From the NCBI GenBank assembly GCA_038087875.1, contig CM075989.1:10542001-10602000 (forward strand): DNA of 60,000 nucleotides, in the 5' to 3' direction. Below the pieces are notes generated by a model that saw only the letters and a program-made list of their open reading frames with translations, was not told where the DNA came from and did not search any database. The DNA comes from Malacoraja senta (lineage: Eukaryota). The position numbers were made by a program, and so were the translations under genes. Positions 1,466-59,798 of this stretch are shown piece after piece; position 1 is the stretch's first letter, and each line of letters begins with the position of its first letter.

Positions 1466-1567
1466 AAGAAGGAACTGCAGAAGGGTTTCGGCCCGAAACG
1501 TTGCGTATTTCCTTCGCTCCATAGATGCTGCCTCACCCGCTGAGTTTCTCCAGCATTTTTGTCTACC
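1466..1567 (+). mobile_element. Penelope-derived short insert with hammerhead-like motif
   Basis: agggtttcggcccgaaacgttg motif plus family tail; exact 18-bp TSD tatttaaataatatattt at 1448-1465 and 1568-1585. Confidence 0.8.
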
Positions 1568-1687
1568 TATTTAAATAATATATTTGCCATGAGCGGTATA
1601 AATGAATTAGAGGAGATAATTGTCCCATCATAAGTTGTACTGATCTGCCTACTTTCTGCAGCCCTGTCCTAACTACCTGATCTAGAA

Positions 1688-1852
1688 GGTAGACGCAAAA
1701 TGCTGGAGTAACTCAGCGGGACATGCAGTATCTCTGGAGAGAAGGAATGGGTGACGTTTCGGGTCGAGAACCTTCTTCAGACTGCTTGTCCCACCGAGTT
1801 ACTCCAGCATTTTGTGTCCACCTTCGATTTAAACCAGATCTGTAGTTCTTTC
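1688..1852. mobile_element. Penelope-derived fold-back insert with hammerhead motif on minus strand (1750-1782)
   Basis: Inverted arms (aaaatgctggagtaactc / gagttactccagcatttt); 15-bp TSD ctacctgRtctagaa at 1673-1687 and 1853-1867. Confidence 0.8.
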
Positions 1853-1949
1853 CTACCTGGTCTAGAACGTGGTTGGGTCCTTTCTCAGTGTATGGTGCCG
1901 CTGCACTTATGATGAGTTCATTCAGTTATAAAATAACGTAGAAATTTAA

Positions 1950-2340
1950 CAGAGAGAAGCAGGAGAAGGAGAAGGCCATTCTGTAACCTGATCCGCATTC
2001 AAGTCGATCATGACTGATCTCATCAATGGCTTCAATTTCACTTTCCACCCTGTTTCACATAGTCCTTGATTTTCAGTAGTCCAAAATGTATCTATATGTC
2101 CATTCGAATACACTCAGTGATTTAATGTCCACAGTTCTCTCTCTCTCACTTGAGAATTCCAAATATTTATCACCCTGTGAGAGAAGGAATTCCTCTTCAT
2201 CTCTGGGTTTAAATGGGTGACCTCTTATTCTGACCCCTTATCCTCCTTGTTCCAGATTGCCCTTTGAGGAGAAGCATGCTCTCGGCATCCATACTATTAA
2301 TGCCTCTCACAATTCTATGTTTCAGTCAGATCACCTTTCA
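1950..2340 (-). mobile_element. Decayed CR1 LINE 3' fragment
   Basis: gaaggccattc...gatcatgactgatctc inverted CR1 3'UTR pattern. Confidence 0.55.
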
Positions 2341-2769
2341 AATGCCATGGTGAACTATAAACCAAGGCTTTACTGTTGGCGACATCAGCTGACAGTGTGT
2401 TCTTGTGACATCCTGCTATCTGTTCTGTTAGCAGAGGTGTAGCCTATTTAAATAAATGAGTCGGCGCCTATTACGGAGAAATGTCTTGTGAATATATCAT
2501 GCATTAATTTAGTGATATTGGTGCCTGTGAGTTCAGAACTGAAGCTGTGATACTCCCGCTAACAGTTCTTAATTTAAACATTGTGAAATTACAGGAAGGG
2601 GAGTGACTTTACAGAATGCTGTACAGTAAAGGAGGAAGGGGCAACAGACACTCTCCTGCTCCCTTAACACAAAGAAAGTTTCCAATGTGTTTTGCAAACA
2701 GAAAACAGAGTTAGGCATCCATACAATAATCCCAAAACTCTGCTTCTGACCAACTTTAGCCCGATTTCT

Positions 2770-2975
2770 TGCACTCTTCCAAGAGTGTCCAATCTATCAA
2801 GATTCTATGCTCTGGAATTCCTTCCCGTTCCCTCTTCCCTCTTCTGCTTTAAGACCCTTTTTGCAAACTATTGATTTCACAAAGCTTTTGCTCACTGTCC
2901 TAATATGTCACCAATAGTTTGATAATATCCCTGCGAAGCACCCTGTGATGTATTTTAGCGCTAATAAACATAAGC
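2770..2975 (+). mobile_element. L2-like LINE 3' end remnant
   Basis: ctctggaattcccttccc...ttaagacc...caaagcttttg...gaagcaccctgtgatg resembles an L2 ORF2 end and tail. Confidence 0.45.
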
Positions 2976-3504
2976 TCCCATTTGATTTTTCCTCGAAACA
3001 TAAAAGGCGGTGGCTTGGCCCAATGCCAGTGTTCAAAGCCATTCCGTCAGAACCCATTCTCTCTCTCACCATTCTGATTGTCTTGTCACCAGGGTTAATT
3101 AGTGGTAACTAATTAACCCACCAACCAGAATTGCCTTGGGATGTGTGCAGAAAATGGAGCTCTCTGGGCAAACGACATACTGACAGCACCAGAGGTTGGG
3201 ATCAAACCGTGGAGTTGTGAAACACAGTATTGCACGAGCCTCTGTGTGCTTGTGTGGCAGCAGCTTTGCACGCTGCACCTCCGCACACTTTAGTTTTTAA
3301 AATTTAGAACAAATGATTCGAGGTTTAAGAATTTAAGGAGGTTTCAGAGAATGGACAGGAATAGCGTAGACAGGAGTCAATTATACTCTGCTGCCAAAAG
3401 TGAGGAAAAGTAAGGGCGTAATTGTGCAGAATTCTGCATGACTAAAAATGACAAGCTGCAGACGGCTTAGAATAGAGCACAGACCCGAGCTGGCTGCAGA
3501 AGAT

Positions 3505-3700
3505 AAAGAAGGTCTGAAGAAAGGTCTCCACTCGAAACGTCAGGTTGAGACCCATTGGACTAAGAGTCAGGGGTCTGAAGAAGGGTCTAGACACAAAACG
3601 TCACCTATTCCTTCTCTCCAGAGATGCTGCCTATCCCACTGAGTTACTCCAGCATTTTTTGTCTACCTTCGATTTTACCAGCATCTGCAGTTCTTTCTTA
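3505..3700 (+). mobile_element. Penelope-derived insert with two tandem hammerhead-like motifs
   Basis: ctgaagaaaggtctccactcgaaacgtc (3514-3541) and ctgaagaagggtctagacacaaaacgtc (3575-3602), followed by the family tail. Confidence 0.75.
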
Positions 3701-4199
3701 AATTTGTAAATGTAATGGGTGAGTGTATTGGGAGCCAATGCAAGTCAATGAAAATGGGGCTGATGGTCACTGTGTGTGTGGCTACAGAAGAGATGCCTGA
3801 ACAAGGTTCATCTTGTGCCCTGTCTGTGGGATTCTATGAGCTGTTAGGTGCTGTTATTTCAATTAATGAATGGAGGGGGGCAGAGAGTATTGGAGGCAGA
3901 AATATTCATGTATTTAAAGATTTTCTGCATGAGAACTTGAAGAGCAGAGACTTCCAGAATGTAGCCTAGGGAATGGGAAAGAAGATGAACTCAAGGCCAA
4001 TTTCAGACTGGCATGAACGTGATGAGCTGCCAGAGTTCTTACTCACAATAATACAGAACTACTTCATTTGGCCCATCAGGTCCATGCTGGCTTCCAGCAG
4101 AACAATCTGACCAGTCTCATTCCTTGGCCCTAACCTTGCTTTCACAACCCCATTTTGATTCTTTTTGCTACTTGCCTAAACTAGGGGTTAATTTGTTAT

Positions 4200-4468
4200 T
4201 AGAGATACAGAGCGGAAACAAGCCCTTTAACCCACCAAGTGCGCACTGACCAGCAATCACTATCCTACACACACTTGGTAATTTATACCAAGCCAATAAA
4301 CCGGTATGTCTTTGGTGTGTGAGAGGAAACCGAAGATCTCAGAGAAAACCCACGCGGTCGCAGGGAGAAACTCCGTACAGACAGCACCCGTAGCCGGGAT
4401 CGAACCCGGGTCTCTGGCACTGTAAGCGCTGTAAGGCAGCAACTTTATCACTGCTCCACCATGCCGCA
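4200..4468 (-). mobile_element. HE1-type V-SINE (tRNA-derived, CR1 tail)
   Basis: B-box ggttcgatccc on minus strand; close match to copies at 16858 and 47012. Confidence 0.85.
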
Positions 4469-13790: not shown

Positions 13791-14715
13791 GAGATTTAAA
13801 AATTATTCCTTTTCTGATCTCCCCTGCCTATTCCTGCAGCCCTCCCGCAGATGTTAACTCATGGACAGCACGCCATGGTTTCAGGCACTGTACTAGCTGC
13901 CTTCTTCATATCTCCTGCTCTTAACTCAATGTTCCAGACTGCGGTTAGCAGGCTATTCCACCATAGTCTACATCACAACCAAGACCGTTCCCAATCCGGC
14001 ACCCATGGGATTTCCAGCAGGGGTGACAGGGAAAAGTCTGAAGCACCAACCCAGGCTGAATTAACTGTTGGGTGGGAGCAGCAGCCCCTGGAGTTGGTTC
14101 TGAGATCAGCACAAACTGGGTCAAACAAGTGCTCTTATAATTTGTATGGAAACACATTTCTAAGAGTAGCATTCTACCACAGCATAATGATGAGTTGAAA
14201 TGCTCGCAACCGAATACAGTTTGCGTCACAAGGTTTCTTTTATTAAACCTATTCCCCACCCCCAACTGAACAGTTCCATGTGTTCCTGATCCTGGAATTA
14301 TAGAGAGGGTTTTACCACATTTATCCCTTGAATGCTTTGTATTTTAGCATCATTACAACAGTGGCAACAAACATGAGAACATAAAATATAGAAGGGCTCT
14401 GGGGACTGTTCTACCAGTTAATAAGATCACCACTGGTCGTCAACCTCAAATCTATGTTCCCCCGCTCCTCCTCTCTGATCCACATGTCCCGTATTTCCCC
14501 CAGTGCCCCAAAAAATTAACCTCAATCCTAAATGTACTCCACGATGGCCTCTACCACCCTCCAGGGGAGAGAATTCCAAAAATTCGTAACCCTCAAGTGG
14601 AGAATTTTCTCCTCACTTCACTTCAAATTTTACATCATTGACTTTAAAGCACTTCAAGATATCCTGAGGTTGAAAAAGGTGGAAATGAATAATAAAGTAA
14701 AATATCATTTATAAA

Positions 14716-14902
14716 AGGTAGACAAAAATGCTGGAGAAACTCAGCGGGTGAGGCAGCATCTATGGAGCGAAGGAAATAGGCAACGTTTCGGCCCGAAACG
14801 TTGCCTATTTCCTTCGCTCCATAGATGCTGCCTCACCCGCTGAGTTCCTCCAGCATTTTTGTCTACCTTCGATATTCCAGCATCTGCAGTTCCTTCTTAA
14901 AC
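14716..14902. mobile_element. Young Penelope-derived fold-back insert
   Basis: ~75-bp near-perfect inverted arms centred on tttcggcccgaaa; 14-bp TSD atatcatttataaa at 14702-14715 and 14903-14916. Confidence 0.85.
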
Positions 14903-15019
14903 ATATCATTTATAAAGCTGGTTTTCCTTCTTGTTTCTCTCTTTCATTCTCCCTCCATTTCTCTTTTTTTTTTTCTTTCACTCTTTTTCTTTTTCTTTTC
15001 CTTTTGCTGTCTCTTTCCC

Positions 15020-15425: not shown

Positions 15426-16857
15426 AATACATTCATTAAAGAGGAACTTGACAAAGAAAATGGAGGCCAGCTATGCTGATGGGGAACACATATTTGGTTA
15501 TGATTTTGATGGGAATCGATGAGTAATTGTAAGCTTTTGGAAACTGGCTAGTGTGTCCTTGGAACTGTTGAAGATTTGGCATGAATTCCCCATGAATTTG
15601 CTAGTTGTTATCTAAAGGTGATCACAGGGCAAGATGGTGAACAGAGTTTTCTTTTGGTGGGAATCAAACACTGACCAGAGTGAGTCAAAGCTGCGGCCTT
15701 ACTAGCTTGTTGTAAAATATGTTACTGGAAGTAACTAACCTACCAGATGCTGTTTCTGTCTAAAAAGAGTCCCAATCGGAAACATCGCCAAACCATGTTC
15801 TCCAGGGATGCTGCTTTATCTCCAGCACTTTGTATTTTTAACCTATCAGGACATTACTCAGATAGACAAAGAAAGTATTTGCATTTGTGTAGTTGCATTT
15901 GTGTAGTTGCGTGAATTCAGGACAACCCACGACATTTTACAGTTGATGAAGGACGGCAAAAGGTGCAATTTAGGATATGCGGCAGCCATCTTGTGTACTG
16001 GTTTCTCCCAGCAATCATCAGCGATTGTTTTCAAAGAGAAGTATATCTTTGTGTCCTTCACCTCTAACCCACCCACCCTGCCGAGGAGATCACCATGTTA
16101 AATACTGCCTTGCTGCTTTGTGTTTGCTCTTTTGATGATGGTGAGCAGAACAATGGGATGATCCGTCCAGTCCCCACTAGTGCAGTTCGTTTGAAATAAA
16201 GGAGCTGCTATTTCTGACAGCACCGGGCATGGGGTGGGGGGTGGAGGGAGCATAGAACTTGGCGTTGGGGAGCTGTGAAATGGGCTGGATGTGAGGTGTG
16301 CATTTCAGTCAAGGCTGGCTGAACGGATCTCGACTCCTGAGCAGAGACACTAGTGTTGATGACATCTCTGTCTGTACAGCACTGTGGTGAGATATTTACA
16401 CCTTACTAAAATTAAAAAGGGCCTTGATGAGACCACACCTGGTATTATGTACAATTTTGGTCTCCCTCCCACGAAAAGAATACAATTGCCAAAGAGGGAG
16501 GGACTGGTTCCAGGATGGAACCATTCCCAGTTTTTCAAAAACACCGGGGCGTATCTTGTTTTCTGGATTCAGTGGTTCTGACTGGAGCTCTGTGTGCTGT
16601 GCCATTGAATTTACATTCGTTCATAGAATCAGAGATTTATAGAATATATTCAATGCAGCAGGGGTCCATTCAGCCCATTGGGTCTCTGCTCATAAAAGAG
16701 CTCTTCAACCTATCCTACCATTCAGCACAGAATCCACAGCTCCGCAGGTCACTGCTTTCCAAGTAGACAACCAAGTACTGTTTAGATTTAATAAGTGTTT
16801 CTGCTTCTCCTGCTGTTTTAGGCAGTGAGTTTCAGGTCCCCACCACCCAGCATGACA

Positions 16858-17188
16858 TGGCACGGCACAGTGGTACAGCGGTAGAGTTGCTGCCTTACAG
16901 CACCAGAGTCCCAGGTTCGATCCTGACTATGGGTGCTGTCTGTATGGAGTTTGTACGTTCTCCCTGTGACCGCGTGGGTTTTCTCCGAGATCTTCGGTTT
17001 CCTACCACACTCCAAAGACGTACAGGTTTGTAGGTTAATTGGCTTGGTATAAATGTAAATTGTTCCTAGTGTGTGTTGGATAGTGCGCGCGGGGGGGTGG
17101 GGTGGGATCGCTGGTCGGTGCAGACGTGGTGGGCTGAAGGGCCTATTTCCACGCTGTATCTCTAAACTAAACTAATACTAAGCTAAAC
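16858..17188 (+). mobile_element. HE1-type V-SINE, full length
   Basis: A-box-like gtggtacagcggtaga, B-box ggttcgatcc, CR1-type tail, (ctaaa)n end. Confidence 0.9.
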
Positions 17189-23230: not shown

Positions 23231-23355
23231 AAGAACTGCAGATGCTGGTTTAAATTGAAGGTAGACACAAAATGCTGGAGTAACTCAGCAGGACAAACAG
23301 CATCACTGGAGAGACGGAATGGGTGACGTTTCGGGTCGAGACCCTTCTTCAGACT
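23231..23355 (-). mobile_element. Penelope-derived insert with intact minimal hammerhead motif
   Basis: 13-bp TSD tgagaatgtagga at 23218-23230 and 23356-23368. Confidence 0.85.
23321..23354 (-). ncRNA. Minimal type I hammerhead ribozyme motif
   Basis: Reverse complement gtCTGAAGAa gggt ctcg accc GAAA cg TC accc: CUGANGA core, 4-bp stem II, GAAA, palindromic ACGU stem III. Confidence 0.7.
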
Positions 23356-23368
23356 TGAGAATGTAGGA

Positions 23369-24240: not shown

Positions 24241-24454
24241 TTGTTTTATTTTATTAACTATGAACATTGTTGATCCTCCATCTCAAAACCATATTCCTAC
24301 TCTCTCCCGATAATCCCTTGATGTATTTTGCTTTTGTATCCATTTCCTTCTTAAATGTATACAATAACTTGATCTCTAACTCTTGATCTACAACTCTTTA
24401 CAGTAGTCGAGTCTGTTGGTTCACCAACATCTGACTGAATAAATTTCTCCTCAG

Positions 24455-24546
24455 ATTGACACAAAGTGCTGGTGTAACTCAGCGGGTCAAGCAGCATCTC
24501 TGGAAAAAAAGGATGGGTGACATTTCAGATCAAGACCCTTCTTCAA
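24455..24546 (-). mobile_element. Decayed Penelope-derived insert
   Basis: acaaagtgctggtgtaactcagcggg...caagacccttcttca. Confidence 0.7.
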
Positions 24547-26735: not shown

Positions 26736-27854
26736 GCATCATCCTTTTTGAGATATCACAGATGTTCCTGTTTATTCCTTTGACTTTTCACTTGCTCCAA
26801 CACTGTTCAATGTTTAAGCTCTTCTAGTTTTGACAAGGTCGCTGCCCTGAAACGTTAGCTCTATTTCACTCTCGGCAGACTCCGCCTGCCCTGCACTGCA
26901 CCTCCAACCCTCTCTCTAATTATTTTAACTAATTATTATTTCACTTCAATTCAAAAGCTTTGCACCACCTCCGTTCCTTAAATCTTCTTCCCACAAAGTA
27001 TGGACTTTGAAAACTAAAATGTGGCATCACTGATTATTCCCTCCTGATGTTCCTGGCCTCTGCTTGGATTGTTTGTCAAGCTTGCTGGGGTCCTGCTCTA
27101 CGACCCTTGCCCCTTCACCTAGATTTCTGAATGTATAAAAGATCTCCAGTCTCAGCGTAGATTACCAAAGGTAGCTTGGGATTTGCGATCAGCTTTCCCC
27201 AGAGCTCAAATTATTTCAGCTTAAGCTGTATTCAGACAATGAAAATCTTGTATTGCAAATATAATTTGACACCAGTAATTATGGGCTTGCAAAACAATTT
27301 CCTCAAAGCATTGAAACTCAGTGCTACAAGTATTTATATGGACTATTGGTGAACATATTGAAGCAGAGCCCTGTTATTATACTAACTTATTCTGAATATA
27401 CCATGCCATTTTGACGGTAATTTAAAATTGAAATCCGGGACCATTTCAATTCTGAAGTTGCTGCAGTTAAGACCTTTAATTGGGATAGCGTGCTTAATTG
27501 TGGGAGAAATGTTTCACATTTTGAAATGCAGCGTTTGATGTGTGTACAAATAGCTAAGATCACACGAGTGGCCATGGACTATTCTTCCCTTAAACATTTA
27601 AAGAAGAAGTTCAGACTTGTAGAGAGGGACCCTTTTTTTAACCTGAGGACAGTTCAATGACCATTGAGATGGTATATGTGTGATATTCCCATTAAGAATT
27701 GTTCTGACGTCTTACTGCTTGTGAACAATGTCCATTTGGGGAAGTTATCAGAAGCTGATGAAATTGTATGTCCCTTGCGGAGGAGAATAGCAAAGGGAAG
27801 ATTACCAAGTAATTTGTTGATGAAATGTACCAACCTGGTAGCTGTTGGTCATGT

Positions 27855-27986
27855 GCAGAAAGGAACTGCAGATGCTGGGTTATACTGAATATAGACACTA
27901 AATGCTGAAGTAACTCAGTGGGTCAAGCAGCATCTCCAGAGGAAAAAGGATGGGCGATGTTTTGAGTCAGAACCCTTTTTCAGACT
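27855..27986 (-). mobile_element. Decayed Penelope-derived insert
   Basis: aaggaactgcagatgctgg...aacccttttttcagact-like end. Confidence 0.7.
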
Positions 27987-35116: not shown

Positions 35117-35509
35117 GAGAAATAAGGAACTGCACATGCTGGTTTACAAAAAATACAAAGTGCTGGAGTAACTCAGCAGGTGAGGCTGCATCTCTGGAGA
35201 ACATGGATAGGTGATGTTTTAAGTCAGGACCCTTCTTCAGACTGAGGTGAGTCTGAAGAAGAGTCACAACCCAAATGTCACCTATCCATGTTCTGGCACA
35301 GAAATAACAAAATACAAAGTGCTGGAGTAACTCAGCAGTCAGGCAGCATCACTGGAGAACATGGATAGGTGATGTTTTAGGTCAGTACCCTTCTTCAGAC
35401 TGAGGTGAGTCTGAAGAAGGGTCACAACCCAAATGTCACCTATCCATGTTCTCCAGTGATGCTGCCTGACCGCTGAGTTACTCCAGCACTTTGTATTTTG
35501 TTATTTCTG
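35117..35509. mobile_element. Compound Penelope-derived fold-back insert
   Basis: Two head-to-head units, each centred on cttcttcagactgaggtgagtctgaagaag; palindrome 35293-35515. Confidence 0.8.
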
Positions 35510-36630: not shown

Positions 36631-36987
36631 CCCAGCAATATGAATGTTGATTTCTCTAATTTCATGTAGCTCCTGCATTCCCCCCGCCTCCACACCTCCA
36701 CGACCCTAGTCATCCTACTCATTGCACTGTTGGCATCCTTGTATTCCTCTCGTCAGTTCATCCTCCCCAGCCAACAATAGGACATCATGGACTACACCCT
36801 TCCAGAGGTGATCTAATGCCAGCCCTGATTTGTTCTGACCTTTTCTTGCCTCCACTTTCCCTCCCTCCCTCCCTCCACCGCTATATTTTGGCCTGAAGAA
36901 GGGTTCTGATCAGAAACGTCACCTATTCCTTTCTCCAGAGATGCTGTCTGACCCGCTGAGTTCCTCCAGCATTTTGTGTTTACCTTC
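36631..36987 (+). mobile_element. Penelope-like element 3' end: ORF terminus, 3'UTR and hammerhead motif
   Basis: PSNMNVDFSNFM* (36631-36669), then ctgaagaagggttctgatcagaaacgtc (36893-36920) and the family tail. Confidence 0.75.
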
Positions 36988-37529
36988 TGCCAATGTACAT
37001 TGACTGCCTGGGGTTGCTGGCACCTTGCCAGAATGGAACCACCTTCTGGAGGTTTTTCCCTTCCAGTCACAGGTGTCTCCGATGCCAACTGTACAGCTCT
37101 TTTCACCAAAGTGTTTGAAGTATGGTCAGAGTTTGAGTTTGAGATGTCATTTTTCACTGACAGTGTCTGAAGAGTCAATCTATCAGCTGAAGAGAGGGCA
37201 GCGTTCATGGCAGAACTCCCAGTAGTTACACTGTAAGCTCATCTACAGAGAAAGTAACTGTTCTACATAAAACAAAACCATGAAACTACAGCAAATGGAA
37301 TTCACCGTTGAAACTCCAGAAAATCCTCTTGATATAGGGGCATTATTTTCCCAATGATGTACATTGAGCGGAGGATAGTTACATAATGAAGATTATGGTA
37401 CACTCTGCCGATGTTATTGAGAGGGGATTTATCCTATCACCTCCATTCTGGCTGGGCATACTGTTGTCCCCATGTGCACCTTAGTTAGCTATGGATTGAG
37501 GTCTGTACCCAGAGAACATTGTCTATACC

Positions 37530-37662
37530 ACTGTCTATATCCCTCGTTTCCATTTCCCCTGACTCTCAGTGTAAAGAAGGGTCTCAACCCGAAACGTCAC
37601 TTATTCCTTTTCCCCAGAGATGCTGTCTGACCCGCTGAGTTACTCAAGCTTTTTGTGTCTAA
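37530..37662 (+). mobile_element. Penelope-derived insert
   Basis: aagaagggtctcaacccgaaacgtcac plus family tail. Confidence 0.75.
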
Positions 37663-44775: not shown

Positions 44776-45529
44776 AACTGGGACAAATGGACCAGATAGC
44801 CTTCCTTGTGTCATGAATTTCGATCATTCCATAATTCTGCTTGTGGTATTTAGTCAATTCATTTTAATTTTTCCTCCCTTTTCCTCCCTATCTTATTCTG
44901 TTCTAATGCTTGAAAGCTCCAGTGATTGATGATCAGAAATGCGACTACATTGTTCGAAGAAGAGTAAAATTCGGATAATAATGAAAAAAAAAGAAAGCTA
45001 AAGTAATGTCTGTGTTCAAAATGATGAGGAGTTTTGAGAGAGTTCACAGGGAGATCACTGGTGGGAGGGGGCGAATGTATTTAACACCACGAGTTGTTGT
45101 GATCTGGGACGAGCTGCCAGAATGGGCGGTGGGTGGAGATTCAGCAACAACTTTCAATTTAATTAGAATATTTGAAAAGAACAAAAAGTCTGCAGTGCTT
45201 TGGGGAAGGAGCAGGGTAGTGCAAGCAACTGCACAACTAGGGCTGCACAGTCGTGCAGCTGGTACTACTGCTGCCTCACAGCGCCAGAGACCCCGGTTCG
45301 ATCCTGACCTCGGGTGCTGACTGTGTATGGAGTTGACATGTTCTTGATTCCCCTACTCTGGAGTAAAGAATTTGTGCATCCACCCTATCTATTCCTCTCA
45401 TGATTTTAGACACCTCTAAAATATCACCTGTCAGCCTCCTGCGCAGCAAGGAATAAAGTCCTAGCCTGCGTAAGTTCTCCCTATAAATTCCCCTCTGTAA
45501 ATTGGCCCAAAAATACATAATATTTAATG

Positions 45530-45825
45530 AGCTGGTAGTGTTGCTGCCTCACAGCGCTAGAGACCCGGGTTCGATCCTGACCTTGGCTGCTGTCTGTGTG
45601 GACTTTGCACATTCTCCCTGTGACAGTGTGGGTTTTCGCTGGGTGTTCCGGTTTCATCCCACATCCCAAAGACATGCAGATTTGTAGGTTAATTGCCCTC
45701 TGAAAATTCCCCTTAATGTGTAGGGAGTGGATGAGACAGTGGGATAACAGAGGAACTAATGTCAATGGTCAGAGTGGACTCAGTGGGCCGACTGGTCTGT
45801 TTCCATGTTGTACCCTTCAATCAAT
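45530..45825 (+). mobile_element. HE1-like SINE (preceded by a SINE head at 45265-45335 and an inverted CR1 piece at 45340-45484)
   Basis: gacccgggttcgatcctgac head and V-domain-like core. Confidence 0.8.
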
Positions 45826-47011: not shown

Positions 47012-47320
47012 AGTTTAGAGATACAGCGCGGAAACAGGCCCTTCGGCCCACCGGGTCCGCGCCGACCAGCGATCCCCGCACATTAACACGATCCGGCACC
47101 CACTAGGGACAATTTTTACATTTACCAAGCCAATTAACCTTCAAACCTGTACGTCTTTGGAATGTGGGAGGAAACCGAAGATCTTGGAGAAAACCCACGC
47201 AGGTCACGGGGAGAACGTACAAACTCCGTACAGAAAGCACCCGTAGTCGGGATCGAACCGGGTCTCCAGCGCTGCATTCGCTGTAAGGCAGCAACTCTAC
47301 TGCTGCGCCACAGTGACTGC
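47012..47320 (-). mobile_element. Young HE1-type V-SINE nested in a Deu-SINE (~46820-47460)
   Basis: CpG-intact copy; Deu sequence (aacagataatctggtcat ... attggctgc) on both sides. Confidence 0.9.
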
Positions 47321-48370: not shown

Positions 48371-48451
48371 CAACACCAAGACCAAAGCATTTCACAGAGC
48401 AAAACAATTGTCTCTGTTTTGCTTCTGGTTTGTTTACCAAGCATCTTATTA

Positions 48452-48842
48452 AGGGCCTGTCCCACTTTCCCGAGTAATTCACGAATTCTCCTGAGTTATT
48501 CACGAATTCTCCCGAGTTTTCAAACTCGCAGAATGTTCGTAACGAGTCCGTAGTAGGCCGTAGGAGTCAGTGGATATATCATAGCGGCTCGTTATGCCAG
48601 CCGTAGGTACTCGGGGCTATTTTTTTACTCGTGGACATTTTTCATCAGGCCGAAAAAACATCCCGACTTACCTGATGCTCCAAGTATCTACGGCTGGCTT
48701 AACAATCCGCTACGATATATCCACGGACTCCTACGGCCTCCTACGGACTCGTTACGAACATTCTGCGAGTTTGAAAACTCGGGAGAATTCGTGAATAACT
48801 CAGGAGAATTCGTGAATAACTCGGGAAAGTGGGACAGGCCCT
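48452..48842. mobile_element. PIF/Harbinger-type MITE, second copy
   Basis: TIR agggcctgtcccactttcccgag / ctcgggaaagtgggacaggccct; TTA TSD at 48449-48451 and 48843-48845. Confidence 0.9.
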
Positions 48843-49748
48843 TTACCAAGTCTCCTGCCACAGGAAATGGTTTCTCCATATTTTCTCCATCAAATATTGT
48901 CACGATTAAAAAAAACCCTCTATTAAATGTTCCATTGACCTTTTCTGCTCAAAGGAGATCTTGGCTTCAATTTCATTTTCACCACCATTTCAATAAATCA
49001 CCTCTGCAGTATCACACAAAAGTTGCTCCCCAGATTTGGTCCCAACTGAAGGGAAATCAGTGATTTTTAAATGTTTAATGAAGGTTCCTTAATTTTGTAT
49101 TTTCTGAGGTAGATATTTTCCTCAGGCATGCGTACCATCATGCACTCATACCCTCCAGGCATAGAGGCTTCGAGGTGGGAGTAGTTTTGCATGGGGAACT
49201 GATGTTGATCATACTGGACATGAATTTGAGAAGCCCAGTCCAATGTTTAGCAATATATCCCATTTTTTACTGAAAGACAAGAACTAATTGCCAATACGAC
49301 CTTGCAAAGCCCAGAATGCTGTAAGCATCATCAGAAGACTTTTCACCTGATCTGCCCATTACAAATATTTCTCCCTGTGAGACCACAGTTGTCTGTCCTG
49401 TGTCCCCTTTACAATAGTGACCATTAACAAGTCCTGGTGTCAGCAATGCATCCATGCATGAAGAGTCAGAGCACCATAGAACCAGGGAAGGCCTGGCGTC
49501 AGCACAAGGGAAGGCTCCAACTTCCAGGCACATTGGAGGAGACAGGGTGTCTGTATATACTGGTACCACCATGTGTTTCCCAGAATTGGTTTGCCAAGAC
49601 TGGTTCCCAAATCCCAGCAGGTGGAAGATCCCCAAATTTGTAATGGTTTACCAAACTCCATCAGAGGAATTGTCCCCTATCACCAGCAGGTAATGGTCCC
49701 AAAACACCAGTAGAATAAGAGGGCCCAAATATCACCAGGAGACTCACC

Positions 49749-49878
49749 CCCAAACACCAGCAGAGGAGATATCTCCAGACACCAGCAGAGGAGTTATCTC
49801 CAAACACCAGCGGGAGAATGATCTCCAAACACCAGCAGAGGAATGATCTCCAAACACCAGCAGAGGAATGATCTCCAA
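49749..49878. repeat. 25-bp minisatellite, ~5 copies
   Basis: Unit ccaaacaccagcagaggaatgatct. Confidence 0.9.
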
Positions 49879-51784
49879 TACGAAGAGAATAATTTTTCAC
49901 CGGACAGCAACTGGGGACTATTAATTCCTTGTATCATTCAAATGTCAAAGGCAACGACTGTCAGTATAGTGTCAAGAGAGGCAGCAGAGGCTGTAATCTG
50001 GAGCACAATAACAAGTTGCTGGAGGAACCCAGCAGGTCAAACAGCATTTCTGAATGCAAAAGGATGGTCAACCTTTTTGTGCCAAGACTCTGCATCAGGA
50101 CCGTGTGCAGGGAGAAAGCCTGTGACCGTCAGTAGGCCATTCAACCTTTGAGAGCCATGTATCAGTGTCAGCTTCCACTGAGGCTGCCTCCTGTTAGCTA
50201 CTAATGGATAGTGTTCTGGGGCAGATCCTTGGTCAATACCCTCTGCATTGCCCAGGATCACCAAAACACCTTTAAGGCTTCACAGAATGAGTCCAGCTGA
50301 GGTGAGCCAAAGGGGAATCAAATCAGTTTGGACTCTGTAGAGCAGGTGCAGATCACCTGTTGCCTTTAGCTGCTTACCCACTGCAGAAGCAAGACGAGTA
50401 TGTTCAACTACAGAGCATATTCTGCAGCTCAGTACTACCAGAGCAAATAGACTGCAAGAGGAATTGATGTAATCATTGCTTATATCATCTGATACTGGTA
50501 TTCACAATCCAAGACTGGCTAACATCCAGGAGTGACATTAATTCCTAGACTTCTTATTAACTAACGTGTTGAATAAACCAGAGCACAAAGATGTAATGAG
50601 AAATTTTAATCTGGCGCCACTGTTGGAATGCGATCAAATTGTGAAGCTTGTGTTGCAGCTATTAAAAAAATTACAGTGTGGAAAATTAGTTTAATGGCAT
50701 GTGCTGTTTAATTAAAATATCAACTCACACTTTGATCTGAGTGCCTTTTGACATCCTATGTTTAGGAAACTCCCTGAGCTGATTTGGAAGGTCTGTAATT
50801 GCTGACATTATGACAGGCGGTGAACTATTCATTCACTGATCAGCTCCGTGTGATGTCAATTCCCGCTCTCCCCTCTCTTGGTGCTGCCCCGCGCAGAGTG
50901 CTCGGTACGTCTCCTCAGTGTCCGTGGTCCATTCTGCAGCCCAGGTGGGTGCGACTCTGCAGATATGAGGCGGAGTGGACTTGATGGCCTAATTCTACTC
51001 CTATGTTGTGATATTCCACTGCTTCATTTGATGCTTAGCCAGAAGCATGGATTTTCTCGACTGCAAGCTCTGTTTCCTAAATTTATAAATTAATTAGTGA
51101 TCGGCGCAGAATTAGGCCATTTGGCCCATCAAGTGTACACCGTCATTCAGTCATGGCTGATCTATCTCTCCCTCCTAAACCCATTCTCCTGCCGTCTCCC
51201 CAGAACCCCTTACACCCGTACTAATCCCGTTTGTTACCAGGCATTGGCAAACTCCACGTTCCTGAAGAGCTTCAGCCCCCAGTAACCCCATGTCTTGCAT
51301 TCATAAACTTCCTGCGTGTTTGGCTCAGTAATAGAGTACAGGGTGAATGGCAGACGAGTGATCTAATTAGCTGAATATTATTGTAAACTATTGTTTCAAT
51401 AAATTGCAACAGTAAACACAGACGAGGATAACAACAGGCCTTGCACTGGAAATCAGCCATTTCGACAAGTAGGATAACACGTTTGGTATCTGTCGTTCAT
51501 TTCAAAATAAAGTCAGTGGTCATGCACACTAAGAAGATTGCAAGTTTTGATCCCGGCCCTTGTTCAGTTAGCTCATTTAGTGAGAGGTGAATTAAAATAC
51601 TGACTCTGATGCAGCAGGTAATGATAAATCTCCAGAGACTCAGTACAGCTTGTCTGACTTTAGCCATCAGCAACTGGTCAACGGCAACATTCAGAAGTTG
51701 GCCATTTTACTGACACCTACTTACATAGATCTCCCATTTTCTTAAAACCTTTGCAAAAACCATTGTAGCAAATAATACGTAGCA

Positions 51785-52554: not shown

Positions 52555-52852
52555 TTTAGTTTAGTTTAGTTTAGGATAACAGCGTAGAAGCAGGTCCCAC
52601 GGCCCACTGAGTCTGCTCCGACCAGCGATCACCCATGCACTAGCACTATCCCACACATTAGGGTTAAATTGGCACAAGCTAATTTACCTATAAACATGCA
52701 TGCTTTGGAGTGTGGGAGGAAACTGGAGCACCCGATGTAAACACACGCGATCAGAAGGCGAATGTACAATCTCCATACAGATAGCACCCGTAGTCAGGGT
52801 CGATCCCGGGTCTCTTGCGCTGTAAGGCAGCAACTCCACCACTGCGCCACTG
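52555..52852 (-). mobile_element. HE1-type V-SINE
   Basis: (tttag)n tail and family body. Confidence 0.85.
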
Positions 52853-53255: not shown

Positions 53256-53560
53256 GTTTTAGTTTTGTTTAGAGATACAGCATGGGAAACAGGCCCTTCG
53301 GCCCACCGAGCCCGCACCGACCAGCGATTCCCACACATTAACACTATCCTAACATACAGGGACAATTTACATTTTTACCAAGTCAATTAACCTGCAAACC
53401 TGTACGTCTTTGGAGTGTGGGAGGAAACCAAAGATCTCTGAGAAAACCCACGCGGTCACGGGGATAACATACAAACTCCATACAGAAAGCACCCGTAGTC
53501 GGGATCGAACCTGGGTCTCTGGCGCTGTAAGGCAGCAACTCTACCGCTGCACCACTGTGT
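53256..53560 (-). mobile_element. HE1-type V-SINE
   Basis: Close match to 47012-47320. Confidence 0.9.
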
Positions 53561-54119
53561 CGACCACAAATATCATCTCTACCCTTTTCTCCTACCCTTC
53601 AGATTTCCTCCCCAATCACATTATCACATTCTAGTGATTGTTATTTTGGATGGGAATATTTCTGGTGGAATCGTTAGTGTTGCTGCTTCAAACCTCCAGG
53701 ACCTGGATTTGATCCTGACTTTGGCGCTTGGTATATCTGATATTCACTCTGCTTGATTATCTATCAGGGGCTGTGGATTCCTCCCCTGTTCCAAAGCCGT
53801 GCTGTAGTTGAATTGGCCTCTGTGAGATATAACTGCAAATGGTGAAATAATTAGTGGTGATGAGAAGCCTGTAAGAGGGAGTAGGTTGTGGGGGTACAGG
53901 AAGTAAAGAGAATGAGAAGGGGTTCTGTTGGGAGCTGGCAGCGAACCCAATAAATGCCCACCTTCTGTATCTTAACAATTACGTAAAAGCCGCAGCTAAC
54001 TTTTTGTTCAAAAGTACTTGTTCAAAAACCCAGATATATCACAATGTTTCTTTTTACTAGTTTCTGTTATTTCTGCAAGGAATTCGAACAGGTTGAGCAA
54101 GCAAAGATTGCTTTTGAAA

Positions 54120-54266
54120 TAGACATCTTCAGATGCAGGAGGAACTCAGCAGGTCAGACCGCATCTCTGGAGAAAAGGAACAGGTGGCGTTTCGGGTCGG
54201 ACACCTTTATCAGAAGATTATACCTATCTTCGGTATAAGCCAGCATCTCCAGTTCCTTCCTACACA
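54120..54266. mobile_element. Decayed Penelope-derived fold-back insert
   Basis: gaactcagcaggtcag...gcgtttcgggtcgg...ccagcatctccagttccttcctacaca. Confidence 0.65.
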
Positions 54267-56029
54267 TTTTTATAGCTTTTGAAATTCAGTGCTCACTGAC
54301 TAAATTAATACTGCTTGAAAATCAGAAGCACCAATGTTCGCTGGAATAAGAAATGATTGAGAGGTCCTAAACGCCACCAAAATGTCTCTGATTCACTGTC
54401 CTATTTTTTTTTTCTTGCTCCGTCACTCTCCACTTTCAGGATTCATTGAAAACAGACTTCCTCAATTGTAATTCGTGATTAAAAGTGGCTGGGTGCCACA
54501 TTTTCTTTGATAATCCTCCTGTAAAACTCTTCGGATAGTTTTCTAGGCTAAGCGGACGACGTAAATGTGAGTTCTTGTTGTTACAATTGCATGAATATGT
54601 CAGCCCAGAATTGGAACTGTAGGTTCTGCTTACATCTCAATCAAGAATTGATTGGGCCAAATGAAGCTGTGAGACCCATTACGTACATATGGGTGGGGAC
54701 CATTCTCTATTCCAGTAAAAATAAGGTTGAATGTCGTTGGGTGGAATGTGAGCAATGTCAGAAAGCTCAGGGATAATTATAATCTGATTAATCTGTCTGA
54801 CACATCATCAAAATACTGCAGCAGATTTCTATGGGAATAAAGGATACACGCAAAGCATTCTTGTGAGAGATTTATTATGAGCCTGTTTTTACAGTTCTAC
54901 ACACTCCGATATATTTCCACTGGTTTTCCTTTGTGAAGACATCCATAATGATCCATAACAAGAAGAAGTCGGGAAACAAGGGGGATGATCGAAGGTAACA
55001 GGGATTACGGCCGTAGCAAATGTTGAAGGGTGTTGGGACTTATTTCCTTCAGGAATCTGAAGGCATTATCAGTGAAATTTCAAGTTTACAAAAGCACCTG
55101 ACAAAATCCACTGGGTAAAGTTTTTTCACTGCAAAGAGGAAATTAAATATCATTGAGTCTTGGCTAAAAATGCTAGGAGATTTAAACTAACTGTTATTAC
55201 CCAAAGTGTATTCGCCACATTGTACTCTGCCTTTGAGGTTCTTTACAAGATGTTGATGGGCAAATGGATAATTGCCATATCATTGACTCTCAGGAGCTAG
55301 AAGTTAGATTATCTCTTGGTGAAGAAATTTGGGTGTTGTGAGTGCAACTTTAGGAAGTATTGCTAATGATTGGAAAATTGTTAAGAACAACACTCATCAA
55401 ATCCATTGTCTTCTGCATTGAACACGGTGGCAAAAGGTGTTCAAGAAACAAGGAGAGGTTGCCTTGAAATTCTTTGGTGTAAAGTGTGTCGTATCGTAGC
55501 ATCAACACACTCTGCTCTGACTCTGATATTGACCTCAATGGAACGTACTTCAGAAGCAGACGTAACATGATGACGTTACCAAGGACAAATATTTAGGCAG
55601 CGTTTTCCCAAGATGTATTGTACCCATAGAAATTTTTACAATGTTAAAAATGATTTCAAAGATAGTATGGCAGTAAATTCAGGGCAAGGCGTTCTTAACC
55701 TGCTGTTCTAATAATTTGGAATCTATTACATGCACATAACTGTTTAAGAGCTCATCCAGAAGAATGTCCCTCTGTCAAAGCAATGATCCCTCAGCAATGC
55801 ATTATATTTATATTTTATGTTCAAAAATCTTGAAGTCACAACATTCTGACTCAAATACATAAGTATCCCAAACAGTCACACTGATGGTGAGGTATATATG
55901 AAGAAGTTAGACCAGTGTGTGGAAAACAATGGATTTGTTGGGTCTATTCTCCTGTCAACAGTCTGTGGTACCCAATTCTCCACAAATAGCATTGCACCAT
56001 AAAGGTGCCAACCAATTACCATCTCTACC

Positions 56030-56706: not shown

Positions 56707-56745
56707 AAAATGGTCACAAGGGGACAACTTAAAACACAAAACGTT

Positions 56746-56943
56746 CAAGAAGAAACTGCAGATGCTGGAGAATCGAAGGTAGTCAAAATTGCTGGAGAAA
56801 CTCAGCGGGTGCGGCAGCATCTATGGAGCGAAGGAAATAAGCAACAGACCTGAAGAAGGGTTTCGGCCCGAAACGTTGCCTATTTCCTTCGCTCCATAGA
56901 TGCTGCCGCACCCGCTGAGTTTCTCCAGCAATTTTGTCTACCT
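56746..56943. mobile_element. Young Penelope-derived fold-back insert with intact hammerhead motif
   Basis: Inverted arms; TSD-like ttaaaacacRaaacgt at ~56729 and ~56944. Confidence 0.85.
56848..56880 (+). ncRNA. Minimal hammerhead ribozyme motif (UUCG-loop variant)
   Basis: CTGAAGA a gggt ttcg gccc GAAA cg TT. Confidence 0.6.
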
Positions 56944-57709
56944 TTAAAACACGAAACGTCAGACACAAAAACATTATACTTTAGAAGGGAAGACATTCAA
57001 CTGTCCCAACATTACAGAACCATGCCAGACCCAGTAAACATAACAGCAGCCATTTGGAGAGGATGAATAGCAGCACCGTAAATAGCTATGTGGAGATGCA
57101 ACTGTTTTGAAATTCATCCATTGCGTCTTGGACTCACTTCAACAATGTACTGCCAAATTCCTTCATATTTAATGCTTGGAATATTGAGTTTCAAGTTCTT
57201 GGTCCTTCTCCAAAATATGTTGGGCCCAAATTACTGGCAACTAAATGTGATTAACAATGGGTTTACTTGTCAGAGAAATTATAAACATAGAGAAGGATCT
57301 TTGAATAATTATCTTCAGAATATGACCTTATGGCTTGACATTTCCAAAAGATGCTGAATATTTGGCTGCATTTAGTGAGCTTAGAATGGAAGGTCCCAAG
57401 GGAATGGGTGGGGCTTGAGTTACATGCTGAGATATTATTACTCTGTATGTTTAATCGAATCCAGGCCAGAATGATGGGATACAAATTTCCTCTGTCCGTG
57501 AGTTGGACAGTCCCGCTGTAAAATGAATGGGTAGGTTCAGTCCAGTTCTTAGTAGGCATGGAGATATAATTTAACTCTAGATTTAAAACAGATAGGGCAC
57601 AAGTTGGCCAATTTATGCAATGGAAAAGTAAGTGTGAATCCAGGGGGAGGGGAATTGTCCAGGGCTGGGGCTGAGGCAAGTTGTGTGAGTCCATGTGACT
57701 AATTATTTG

Positions 57710-58130
57710 CAACCCAGCGGGTAGCTCTCTTGTCTGAGGCAGGAGCTGCACCTTCAAGTCCCACTCCAGAGATTAAACCATGAAAGGGATAGGAAGGTGC
57801 TCTGTTGCAACACTGAGGTGGGCCAACCGATGTGTGATGTCTTGTGGATGATTCAGTAAACCGAGACCCTGTATGATCACCCAAATGGACACAAAAGCTC
57901 CCCAGATAAAATTTTAAAGAAAGACAGGAAAGTTCCTTGTGGTGTCCTTGTCACTATTGAATGTTCACCCTGCACAATTAAAGCCAGTTATTTACTCATG
58001 GTCTTGCAGCTGTTTGTGAAAGCTTGCTATGCGCAAATTGGCTGCCAGCTTTACAGATTGAAACAGTGACAAAAGTACTTCATTGATAATAACATGTTTT
58101 GGGATGAAGTGATAGATGCTTATAAGTTCC
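57710..58130 (+). mobile_element. Deu-domain SINE
   Basis: ttcaagtcccactccagaga head; taaaccgagaccctgt; gcttgctatgcgcaaattggctgcc; caaaagtacttcattg. Confidence 0.75.
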
Positions 58131-58661
58131 CATATAACACAAACCAGGCTCTCTTTATTCTCCATTTAGTTGGGCTTGACCTGGCCTGGGGAGGTGTCTG
58201 GAACCATTCCATTTCCAGCATGACTCTCCGTCACTGTACAACAACTCACTAAATAAAGTTGGAATATTGAAATAAGGAAGAGACAACAAAACAGTTTGTT
58301 TATGGTAGGTCCAGAAATAGGATGGCAAAAGTGACCGAGTAATCTTCCTGCTCGCAGAAAAATGGTTACAGGAAAATGTAGGGTTCTAATGAAAGTTATA
58401 TTTAGACATAGAGTCATACAGCGGGGAAACAGGCCCTTTGGCCCAAATACTTCATGCCGACCAAGTGTCCATCTGAGCTTGTCACAATTGCTCTCTAGTC
58501 CCATATCTCTCTAAACCTTTCCTAACCATGTATCTGTCTAAAGTCTTACGATACTCATCTTCATTGATGTTCAGTTACCAAATGCGACTCCACTATTTAA
58601 GGAAGAGGGAGAAATAAAATAGAAAACTACCAACTTATAGCAGGGAAAAAGGTGCAGCCAG

Positions 58662-58847
58662 GCACAAGAAGCTGGAGTAACTCAGTGGGTCAGGCAGCTT
58701 CTCTGGAGAAAAAGTATAGGTGATGTTTCAGGTCAAGACACTTCTTCAGTCTGAAGCAGGGTCTGGACGTGAATGCCTTCAGACACCTATTCCTTTTCAC
58801 CAGAGATGCTGCCTGACCCGCTGAGATACACCAGCTATTTGTGTCTA
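58662..58847. mobile_element. Penelope-derived fold-back insert (decayed)
   Basis: agctggagtaactcagtgggtcaggcagc / gctgcctgacccgctgag arms with head-to-head cttcag-tctgaag centre. Confidence 0.75.
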
Positions 58848-58879
58848 GGGATATATATGGTAGGGAAATTTATAATGAA

Positions 58880-59150
58880 GGATGTATTACCAGAACGCCT
58901 TGGAAGGAATTGTAGAATCTAGCAAATTCTACAGGGATTTATAAAAGGAAAATCATGTTTGGCCAATTTACTGGAGTTCTTTTGGGATATGACTAGCGAC
59001 AGATAAGACGGAACAAGTGGATGTAGTTTATTTGGATTTTCAGAATGCTTTCGGTGAACTCACACACAGAAGATTGGGTTGACAAGGCTTATAGAACACA
59101 AAATAAGGATAATATACTGGGATGGATTAAGAATCGGTTAACAGATGAAA
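58880..59150 (+). mobile_element. CR1 RT fragment (resumes at ~59800)
   Basis: GFIKGKSCLANLLEFF...VDVVYLDFQNAF; after the insert AVTRGIPHGSVLG. Confidence 0.85.
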
Positions 59151-59169
59151 AACAATATGTGGGAACATG

Positions 59170-59798
59170 AAGAGGGACAGGCAGCATCTCTGGAGAGAAG
59201 GAATGGGTGATGTTTCGGGTCGAGACTCTTCAGACTGGTTAGGGATAAGGGAAATGAGAGATATAGACGGTGATGTGGAGAGATAAAGAACAATGAATGA
59301 AAGATATGCAAAAAAAGTAACGATGATAAAGGAAACAGGTCATTGGGTGAAAATGAGAAGCTGGTGCGACTTGGGTGGGGGAGGGATAGAGAGAGAGGGA
59401 ATCCTGAAGTGAGAGAAATCAATATTCATTTTCTTGCCGATCTCAGCATCTCATTTTCGCCCTACAAACAGCTTACAATGGCTTGTTTCCTTTCTCATCG
59501 TTACTTTTTTGCATATCTTACATTCATTGCTCTTTATCTCTCATCACCGTCTATATTTCTCGTTTCCCTTATCCCTAACCAACCTGAAGGACCATGATCA
59601 GCCATGATCACATTGAATGGCGGTGCTGACTCGAAGGGCCGAATGGCCTACTCTTGCACCTATTGTCTATTGTCTATTGTCTCGACCTGAAACGTCACCC
59701 ATTCCTTCTCTCCAGAGATGCTGCCTGCTCCGCTGAGTTACTCCAGCTTTTTGTGTCTATCTTCCGTTTAAACCAGCATCCGCAGTTCCTTCCTGCAC
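59170..59798. mobile_element. Penelope-like 3' region as a large inverted repeat, with a nested CR1 tail
   Basis: Minus arm 59170-59430 includes ORF end MNIDFSHFR; plus arm 59435-59798; CR1 tail at ~59591-59678. Confidence 0.75.

Follow-up and report, generated by a model that had tools for sequence, protein, structure and literature searches.

Short hammerhead-bearing repeats of Malacoraja senta are probably the pseudo-LTR ends of an autonomous Penelope-like retrotransposon

A profile search of the window, the whole 60,000-nt stretch of Malacoraja senta DNA analysed here, located 25 repeat arms at 16 insertion sites (Table 1), and the search of 660 kb of reversed sequence that served as a control returned 0 matches. 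An earlier note on this DNA had counted about 15 copies; a repeat is present at all 15 places that it named, and it missed the insertion at 50013-50099. The window units are solo or head-to-head, not tandem. The tail of about 100 nt that the note described as common to them is indeed shared and consists of 95 nt that may be followed by a further 37 nt; we found this extension in 54 of 141 high-scoring arms. The hammerhead motif that it reported at the named sites is real but intact in only two of the 25 arms, in which all 11 core positions and all four stem II pairs are kept; in the remaining 23 the hammerhead is decayed or cut. The strict motif occurs only at 23329-23352 (minus strand) and 56850-56873 (plus strand), with 0 occurrences expected from 100 shuffles. 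An Rfam search of the window gave no hammerhead family at E<=5, and the microRNA matches it returned were rejected as artefacts, because the head-to-head arms form hairpins. We found no remnant of a Penelope-like element (PLE) ORF in the window by tblastn and no PLE frame in its ORF list. The arm load of the window is typical of the genome (24 arms per 60 kb in this comparison vs 5-46 per 50-kb block elsewhere).

Table 1. Repeat arms, duplications and hammerhead motifs in the window (pLTR, putative pseudo-LTR; cleavage positions are predicted).
Position	Strand	Feature	Details
1466..1568	+	pLTR arm, youngest (UUCG-loop) subfamily	Short inverted tail piece before the arm; 18-bp target-site duplication, 1448-1465 / 1568-1585
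1685..1856	.	Head-to-head insertion	Minus arm 1785-1685 and partial plus arm with tail; 15-bp duplication, 1 mismatch
3511..3704	+	Partial duplicate, then pLTR arm with tail	Hammerhead only (3511-3542), then arm (3571-3704)
14714..14903	.	Near-perfect head-to-head palindrome	Joint at hairpin inside stem II; hammerhead 5' half missing; 14-bp duplication, 14702 / 14903
15757..15833	+	Old decayed pLTR arm	Profile score 32 bits
23224..23355	-	Solo pLTR with tail	Starts 3 nt before hammerhead core; 13-bp duplication directly adjoining, 23218-23230 / 23356-23368
23325..23352	-	Intact minimal hammerhead motif	Core, bulged A, 4-bp stem II, ACGU palindrome, GUC triplet; cleavage predicted after 23325
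24451..24545	-	Older pLTR arm	
27850..27986	-	Older pLTR arm with tail	
35117..35495	.	Four arms, older subfamily	Direct and head-to-head
36890..36987	+	Solo pLTR arm	
37529..37662	+	pLTR arm	Plus about 40-50 nt of element 3' UTR
50013..50099	-	Arm of very old subfamily (CUGAUG core)	Absent from the earlier note
54119..54268	.	Minus arm and inverted tail piece	11-bp duplication
56743..56947	.	Head-to-head insertion, youngest subfamily	Forward arm preceded by inverted arm with tail; 16-bp duplication, 1 mismatch
56850..56877	+	Intact minimal hammerhead motif	UUCG loop, GUU triplet; cleavage predicted after 56877
58655..58848	.	Head-to-head pair	Joint at hammerhead 5' edge
59171..59800	.	Head-to-head pair, both arms with partial 3' UTR	UTR type is post-endonuclease in L034; plus arm split by another repeat (59594-59670)

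The high copy number proposed earlier is borne out at the genome scale: arm density is 454 arms/Mb, which extrapolates to ~0.9 million arms per genome, and about 4% of the genome consists of this one 100-nt unit. The intact hammerhead motif is present in 51 of 601 sampled arms (1.26 Mb), or ~79,000 genome-wide by extrapolation; the corresponding figures for coelacanth and Xenopus are about 4,000 and 9,000. Copy numbers fall from the 3' to the 5' part of the element, with 110,700 endonuclease candidates, 9,952 RT, 1,300 ORF-start and 340 exact leader matches (100 of the 340 among the matches listed), and the youngest subfamily has 21,989 exact cores, of which only 10,020 are accompanied by the next 9 upstream nt. 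The unit was also seen in contigs from other organisms' sequencing runs, and the depth step at the hammerhead edge may reflect divergence of the 3' UTR.

Comparison of the units with longer genomic copies suggests that the short repeats are probably the 3' pseudo-LTR (pLTR) of an autonomous Neptune-type PLE. In agreement with the Penelope origin put forward in the earlier note, the unit sits behind an ORF for RT and GIY-YIG endonuclease, and at 19 of 20 endonuclease loci the end of this ORF precedes it by 116-234 nt. The element reads ORF end, 3' UTR, hammerhead, 95 nt, 37-nt tail, 33-nt leader and ATG, such that the tail is continuous with the ORF leader. Its single ORF encodes a PLE-type RT and, at its C terminus, a GIY-YIG endonuclease (Pfam GIY-YIG, with RVT_1 below the curated cut-off) and contains the motifs DKG, QGxAMG, YIDD and YIGET. 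Among 15 long copies examined, three carry an intact ORF (intact ORFs span 1226-1290 aa) and 11 have a 3' hammerhead 3.7-4.0 kb behind the ATG. Partial-tandem pseudo-LTRs, inverted 5' copies and an optional 30-40 nt tail, all traits of EN+ PLEs, are present as well. The closest named protein relatives come from sharks and rays (64-73% identity), consistent with the chondrichthyan host that had been proposed from the letters. Assignment to the Neptune type is indirect; it rests on a CX4CX2C linker, found at residues 1105-1113 of the L262 ORF between RT and EN, and on metagenome relatives of the present RT, which carry the hammerhead printed for Acropora digitifera (a Neptune entry in Table S1 of the PLE hammerhead survey). 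A CX2-5CxxC Zn-finger linker is a trait of Neptune that is common to Nematis (PMC8557442).

Two of the 25 window arms carry CUGANGA, the extra base, a stem II with G10.1-C11.1, GAAA, a palindromic N15.2-N16.2 and NUH, and the minimal type I hammerhead motif recognised earlier fits the consensus of Cervera 2014. Apart from CpG decay, the consensuses of all large subfamilies conform to this motif, and they differ from each other at tolerated positions, namely N7 (A/U), the loop, N17 (C/U, never G) and 1.1 (A/G opposite U). The two versions of stem II described in the earlier note both exist, but only one side of the stem changes (U-A to U.G, with a further change in the loop), and among 12 subfamily consensuses we found no two-sided compensatory change in stem II. 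Non-CpG columns vary at 1 of 10 core positions vs 20 of 51 downstream (p=0.07), in a profile that was seeded on motif-selected copies and with stem changes that are one-sided. In a cross-family comparison with metagenome relatives, core, bulge and triplet were kept together with wholly different stem II sequences in 14 of 80 loci (reversed control, 0). Minimal hammerheads of PLEs have 2-6 bp in helix I about the cut site; here it comprises 2 bp at the core, a 2x2 loop and up to 2 bp more. Folding of the monomer into a hammerhead was not predicted (z about 0), and the drawn hammerhead dimer was placed at -6 to +5 kcal/mol vs -21 to -25 kcal/mol for the best dimer fold.

We next consider where copies begin and end. 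In about half of the youngest copies the 5' start lies <=9 nt from the 5' edge of the hammerhead, usually adjoining a target-site duplication. We found 362 arms that reach this edge; 160 of them stop there, in 104 an inverted arm follows and 98 continue into the 3' UTR. Duplications accompany 41 of 113 stop-class copies and, in a shifted control, 2 of 113; of the 41 copies, 31 end within -9..+5 of the core; the duplications measure 10-21 bp and are 66% AT. In old subfamilies the stop class may be inflated by 3' UTRs that lack a partner. The 5' ends pile up over 10 nt, most often at -2, in a zone that microhomology blurs and that is not confined to a single base, and no clear cap-derived extra G was detected in duplication-defined copies (1 of 41). 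At the other side, 3' ends of young copies fall at site 1 in 68 of 105 and at site 2 in 24 of 105, the two sites flanking the tail. Paired arms are head-to-head in 112 cases and tail-to-tail in 12. Longer copies behave differently at the edge: in confirmed full-length copies the second crossing passes it in 10 out of 10, a sample whose members may derive from few masters and hence not be independent, and single copies with an ORF start pass it in 26 cases and stop in 2 (binomial 1.5e-5 at a 45% stop rate).

Retrozyme-like tandem arrays, which are deletion derivatives with a period of 219-384 nt and one hammerhead per unit, are rare; they occur elsewhere in the genome (for example 384 nt x 13), and none lies within the 60-kb window. 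When ten arrays were examined, the joint coincided with the predicted cleavage site in three and with the hammerhead edge in two, with oligo-A at the joint in one. The joints of array L321 vary between units. A 32-nt cluster lies at G000:C4:62559829 and a 122-nt cluster at G000:C2:122472024. Among dispersed copies, we saw no clear enrichment of element 5' starts at the cut site (3 of 501); genome-wide, 210 starts fall at this site vs 154 and 57 at the neighbouring bases. By eye, ~45 of the first 100 cut-site matches listed look like microhomology deletions or fold-backs.

Judged from these junctions, copy start points and array joints likely record the element RNA's 5' end and its predicted self-cut site, respectively, and most units are likely dead-end short insertions from an internal RT start on that RNA. 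We propose that the RT would start inside the element RNA, about 95 or 130 nt behind the hammerhead, with the GIY-YIG nuclease nicking the target and priming at the tail sites in the manner of the Anolis element, and that it would then run off the 5' end of linear RNA at the 5' edge of the hammerhead. The run-off point may be the transcription start, fold-back of run-off cDNA could yield the head-to-head pairs, and circular or multimeric RNA could give rise to long and partial-tandem copies; the hammerhead, whose cleavage is predicted, would cut at least sometimes in the germ line. We hold this account as a whole (pLTR ends of an autonomous PLE, internal start, run-off at the hammerhead edge) with good confidence. 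A more far-reaching reading, in which solo pLTRs are 'strong-stop' run-offs, cut-site arrays are footprints of cleavage in vivo, full-length partial tandems come from circular RNA and the family thus forms a fossil record of these steps, is tentative and somewhat more doubtful than an even chance.

The earlier note had instead taken the repeats for a separate non-autonomous, retrozyme-like family. An independent retrozyme- or SINE-like family whose own units are transcribed, self-cleave and are copied again by a Penelope RT would account for the very many units with sharp, similar ends and for the existence of tandem hammerhead-bearing deletion arrays, and neither of two small old clusters, of 9 and 7 sampled arms, has an endonuclease-linked member in the sample. 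All six large subfamilies, however, have endonuclease-linked members, young short copies are 91-96% identical to the pLTR of the intact element, and the intact motif is kept in few of the sampled arms. Dispersed units are, moreover, non-tandem, and downstream of their tail there is none of the ORF-start sequence that is required by the Anolis enzyme (PMC11167929). Autonomous parents exist and the unit appears to be their pLTR, and therefore not an independent retrozyme family, which we consider highly improbable.

Two further explanations concern the edge and the ribozyme themselves. The pile-up could reflect a polymerase stop at the C/U-rich 3' UTR or the product of a 3' splice site, and the edge is in fact a good splice acceptor: it reads as a pyrimidine tract followed by CAG/U, the base composition at -2, -3 and -4 is similar to that of exon ends, and in Drosophila virilis Penelope the 3' end of an intron maps to the start of helix I (PMC4209133). 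Yet the duplications abut the edge and therefore no upstream exon was copied, full-length copies cross the same sequence on their second pass, a donor-like GT near the stop codon is missing from the youngest subfamily, and no GT-AG joint at the edge was found among the joints listed (contigs), such that we regard a stall or splicing origin as unlikely. Somewhat less unlikely, albeit still well short of our preferred run-off account, is the view that the hammerhead is kept as a structural or promoter element without cleaving here and that cut-site arrays arose by microhomology slippage. This would be consistent with the predicted weakness of helix I and the failure of modelled monomers to form the ribozyme, with short homologies by the cut site (5 nt to 3' end site 1, 4 nt to the ORF start), with one 122-nt array that starts one base further on (among the matches listed), and with the Anolis element, for which cleavage was unneeded in vitro and RNA-seq revealed no ends at the cut site (PMC11167929). 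It is opposed by the confinement of subfamily changes to tolerated positions, by the core, bulge and triplet retained in distant relatives, and by the joints themselves, which in L321 do not have the base expected to remain under clean microhomology and in L304 share only 1 nt of homology.

The kind of element described here is already known (Cervera 2014). Like known EN+ PLEs (PMC8557442), it has a single ORF that joins RT, Zn-finger linker and C-terminal GIY-YIG; its pLTR hammerhead fits CUGANGAH-G...C-GAAAN-NUH as in other PLEs, with which it also shares heavy 5' truncation, partial tandems, inverted 5' copies and the short tail. It differs from them in its weak helix I, in a Pro/Ser/Thr-rich repeat region that extends the ORF to about 1240 aa and in the clustering of 5' ends around the hammerhead edge, which does not appear in the accessible part of the published description. 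Fig. S3 of the PLE hammerhead survey covers 40 species and no chondrichthyan. In the literature that we searched, we did not find the edge pile-up, read-through on the second crossing or array joints at the cut site; the family itself may well be in Repbase/Dfam. The role of the hammerhead in EN+ PLEs and the origin of pseudo-LTRs and partial tandems are questions posed in the literature, and a young family with intact ORFs and tens of thousands of near-identical copies makes junction statistics countable. The model predicts exact RNA ends. The more far-reaching reading, if true, would lend support from genomic data to the 2014 proposal of self-cleavage and circles and give a view of retrozymes born as deletion circles of an active element.

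Poseidon of Anolis carolinensis (Frangieh et al. 2024, PMC11167929) resembles the present element in its two internal start sites flanking the tail, in a tail that continues into ORF-side sequence and in AT-leaning targets. It belongs to another clade, however; in the present element the ATG follows the core at a distance of 163 nt and is not in stem II, the start sites are in a non-coding leader, and three arrays rejoin at the cut site, where no RNA ends were found for Poseidon. Animal non-LTR retrozymes (Cervera and de la Pena 2020, PMC7229834) are likewise non-coding, hammerhead-bearing and pLTR-related, and the 219-384 nt arrays fit their definition. The units of the window differ in being scattered pLTR ends, solo or head-to-head, whose hammerhead is minimal instead of canonical and which have autonomous parents. 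Retrozyme families with a mean of 363 bp are reported for one chondrichthyan in the preprint of Li, Clavereau and Pollet 2026 (10.64898/2026.07.22.740005), and the arrays found here may overlap with these families.

Searching the window with a profile derived from 85 copies in the genome, we found the unit at all 15 places named in the earlier note and detected 25 copies (arms) at 16 insertion sites. The same search identified 282 arms in 660 kb of genome sequence and none in reversed sequence, which served as a control. Many of the window insertions are head-to-head pairs, and target-site duplications of 11-18 bp are clear at several. The strict hammerhead motif occurs twice in the window (0 expected), the two arms bearing it are the only ones of the 25 with the whole core and stem II intact, and Rfam named no hammerhead family there. 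As for the two proposed stem II subfamilies, the difference exists but is one-sided. The claimed high copy number was upheld in a content-blind sample of 1,260,000 bases, made up of the window and 120 other stretches, each of 10 kb and 20 of them adjoining it, where 572 arms scored at least 20 bits; these correspond to 454 per Mb, occupy 3.7% of bases and extrapolate to ~0.9 million arms per genome. The motif was intact in 51 of 601 aligned arms, or ~79,000 per genome by extrapolation. An exact 31-mer from the unit had 13,276 genome matches, and exact matches to the youngest subfamily's 23-nt core numbered 21,989.

No ORF remnant of a Penelope-like element (PLE) was found within the window, and endonuclease sequence (Pfam GIY-YIG) lay upstream of the unit in 4 of the first 30 genome copies. 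A protein search of the genome with this endonuclease yielded 110,700 candidates, and in 19 of 20 loci taken from them (18 scored by pattern and one by eye; the twentieth could not be assessed, and some loci duplicate a single event) the unit follows the last conserved endonuclease motif by 116-234 nt. Longer copies add a PLE-type reverse transcriptase (RT), in agreement with the suggested Penelope origin. Young full-length copies open with a partial upstream copy, followed by the 3' UTR, the hammerhead, a stretch of 95 nt, the 37-nt tail and a 33-nt leader; the ATG comes next, 163 nt behind the hammerhead core. Three of 15 long copies examined have intact ORFs (1226, 1238 and 1290 aa) bearing DKG, YIDD, C-X4-C-X2-C linker and GIY-YIG motifs, which according to the available text of PMC8557442 characterise Neptune/Nematis elements. 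Their nearest named relatives are proteins of Chiloscyllium, Rhincodon, Hypanus and Mobula (64-73%), which favours a cartilaginous fish as the host. Endonuclease-linked members occur in six of eight arm clusters, the other two being small and old, and mean divergence ranges from 4 to 21% between age classes. Because of the endonuclease linkage, the intact ORFs and these clusters, we conclude that the unit is the 3' pseudo-LTR (pLTR) of a family of autonomous elements that spans several age classes, and not the independent non-autonomous family previously envisaged. An independent retrozyme family, retrozymes being defined by tandem repeats in the available part of PMC7229834, is highly improbable.

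The ORFs at loci L261, L262 and L267 (1226-1290 aa) contain a long Pro/Ser/Thr/Ala-rich region (residues ~160-520), located after the N-terminal motif and before the DKG region, whose in-frame repeats vary in number; this region resembles the in-frame inserts of low complexity in Adineta Penelope elements. Chance in-frame fusions were seen at two loci: a truncated PLE within another LINE's ORF (L065:2122-6075, 1318-aa frame) and a different LINE within the PLE ORF (L270:1566-5360, 1264-aa frame).

The motif fits the PLE minimal-hammerhead consensus in the available part of PMC4209133, as the earlier identification had it, and judged by sequence the Malacoraja hammerhead is a predicted ribozyme of this type. 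Subfamily differences sit at positions that tolerate change; within the genome, 1 of 10 core columns vary versus 20 of 51 downstream, which is not significant (p=0.07). Among 80 metagenome loci of relatives, 14 have core, bulge and triplet in common with the Malacoraja hammerhead, whereas their stem II sequences are unrelated; the reversed loci contained no motif. Of the 41 metagenome loci that extend far enough beyond the endonuclease, 11 passed the strict test, including one whose motif lies upstream of the ORF. Five loci match the Acropora hammerhead printed in the supplement of PMC4209133, whose Table S1, in the portion available, assigns that element to Neptune. Helix I is weak, and structure prediction favoured the hammerhead fold in neither monomer nor dimer; a non-cutting hammerhead, which would be compatible with other readings, is possible, if rather doubtful. 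At locus L153 (1360-1505), the predicted fold of unit plus tail pairs the core with the tail end (z -2.27), an arrangement that might inactivate the ribozyme; for older subfamilies, different folds are predicted.

Copy ends are non-random. The 3' ends form two clusters flanking the tail (68 and 24 of 105), like the two internal RT start sites described for Anolis Poseidon in the accessible text of PMC11167929. At loci L311, L319 and L320, the 3' end lies ~30-55 nt inside the ORF, which suggests rarer start sites behind the tail. The 5' ends concentrate at the hammerhead 5' edge: 362 arms extend as far as this edge, of which 160 stop there, 104 are followed by an inverted arm and 98 by shared 3' UTR (61, 35 and 40 of 136 high-scoring arms). 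In the youngest subfamily, the next 9 nt are retained in 10,020 of the 21,989 exact cores; after allowing for mutation, an estimated 45-47% of copies end within this zone, where per-base loss is roughly ten times that elsewhere. Upstream match lengths of 0 to 7+ were seen in 10, 13, 31, 18, 9, 6, 3 and 10 of the first 100 listed copies, counted by eye and by design without most UTR-bearing copies. Target-site duplications, found for 41 of 113 copies that stop at the edge versus 2 of 113 in the control, confirm this edge as a true copy boundary, and 31 of the 41 copies so defined end within -9..+5. That the pile-up reflects a polymerase stop or a splice site instead is unlikely. No clear excess of dispersed-copy ends was found at the predicted cut site. 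In contrast to short copies, all 10 confirmed full-length copies pass the upstream edge; among single copies with an ORF start, 26 pass and 2 stop. This tally merges two duplicate pairs and omits arrays, copies truncated short of the edge and those with just ~30 nt of ORF.

Among 100 listed of 340 genome matches to the leader pattern, at least nine arrays or pairs have periods of 138-961 nt. In two of them (138 nt x 11; 165 nt x 4) the 5' joint sits at the predicted cut site, in another two (219 nt; 299 nt, the latter with oligo-A at a joint that varies between units) it is at the hammerhead edge, and in five it lies further upstream, that of the 961-nt array being mapped imprecisely. Array ends, where seen, are at or close to RT start sites. 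In a tenth array, made up of five 61-62-nt units, each of the four internal joints begins at the cut site, an additional A being present or absent, and the pattern looks like repeated run-off and re-priming; detected via a cut-site-directed pattern, this array is not independent evidence on position. Short homologies adjoining the cut site may account for two of the three arrays that join there, and the numbers are small.

Element anatomy, duplications, two 3' sites, 5' pile-up and array joints are read directly from the copies, and we infer a model which we consider probable as a whole. Reverse transcription would be target-primed, start internally in the element RNA and run off an RNA 5' end positioned at the hammerhead edge. 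The edge sequence, TCAGT, resembles an initiator. PLE promoters are situated in the pLTR according to the available part of PMC2377424. Fold-back would produce the head-to-head pairs, an origin discussed in the accessible text of PMC3846280, and circular or multimeric RNA would template long copies. Alternatively, strands may be transferred from the 5' end to the 3' pLTR, with more frequent success on the second pass.

The element belongs to an already known kind of PLE. PMC4209133, as far as available, already describes truncated PLEs as the source of dispersed single minimal hammerheads, along with opposite-strand pairs and a circle model. The accessible portion of a 2026 preprint (Li, Clavereau and Pollet, 10.64898/2026.07.22.740005) regards retrozymes as derived from PLEs and reports families of them in one chondrichthyan that may include the tandem arrays seen here. 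The available part of PMC12602865 added no information on copy ends. Literature searches found no publication on the 5' pile-up, the cut-site joints or the Malacoraja family, which may well be listed in Repbase or Dfam. The kind of element is ordinary and its scale unusual, and its junctions allow an unsettled question of mechanism to be tested directly.

At loci L024, L030, L091 and L099, an older subfamily forms short head-to-tail repeats that restart at the core GAAA, 8 nt before the cut site. Young cores recur at ~2.4-kb intervals at G000:C1:3872248-4035109 in the genome, where a pLTR was probably caught in a larger tandem repeat. The window also holds other repeats.

Other repeats in the window
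Feature	Positions	Description
Second dispersed repeat	16863-17085, 34789-35003, 45257-45724, 47087-47262; further copies 52703-52852, 53358-53569, 4260-4409	~200 nt; presumably a tRNA-derived SINE of sharks and rays
Third dispersed repeat	773, 17203, 28553, 38276, 41428, 42008, 47009, 58398	40-140 nt; presumably LINE-derived ends
MITE-like element	48451-48843	167-nt inverted arms (94%) around 59 nt
MITE-like element, related second copy	32847-33194	
Tandem repeat	42347-43492	47 nt, over 20 units, ~94% alike
Tandem repeat	49700-49899	25 nt
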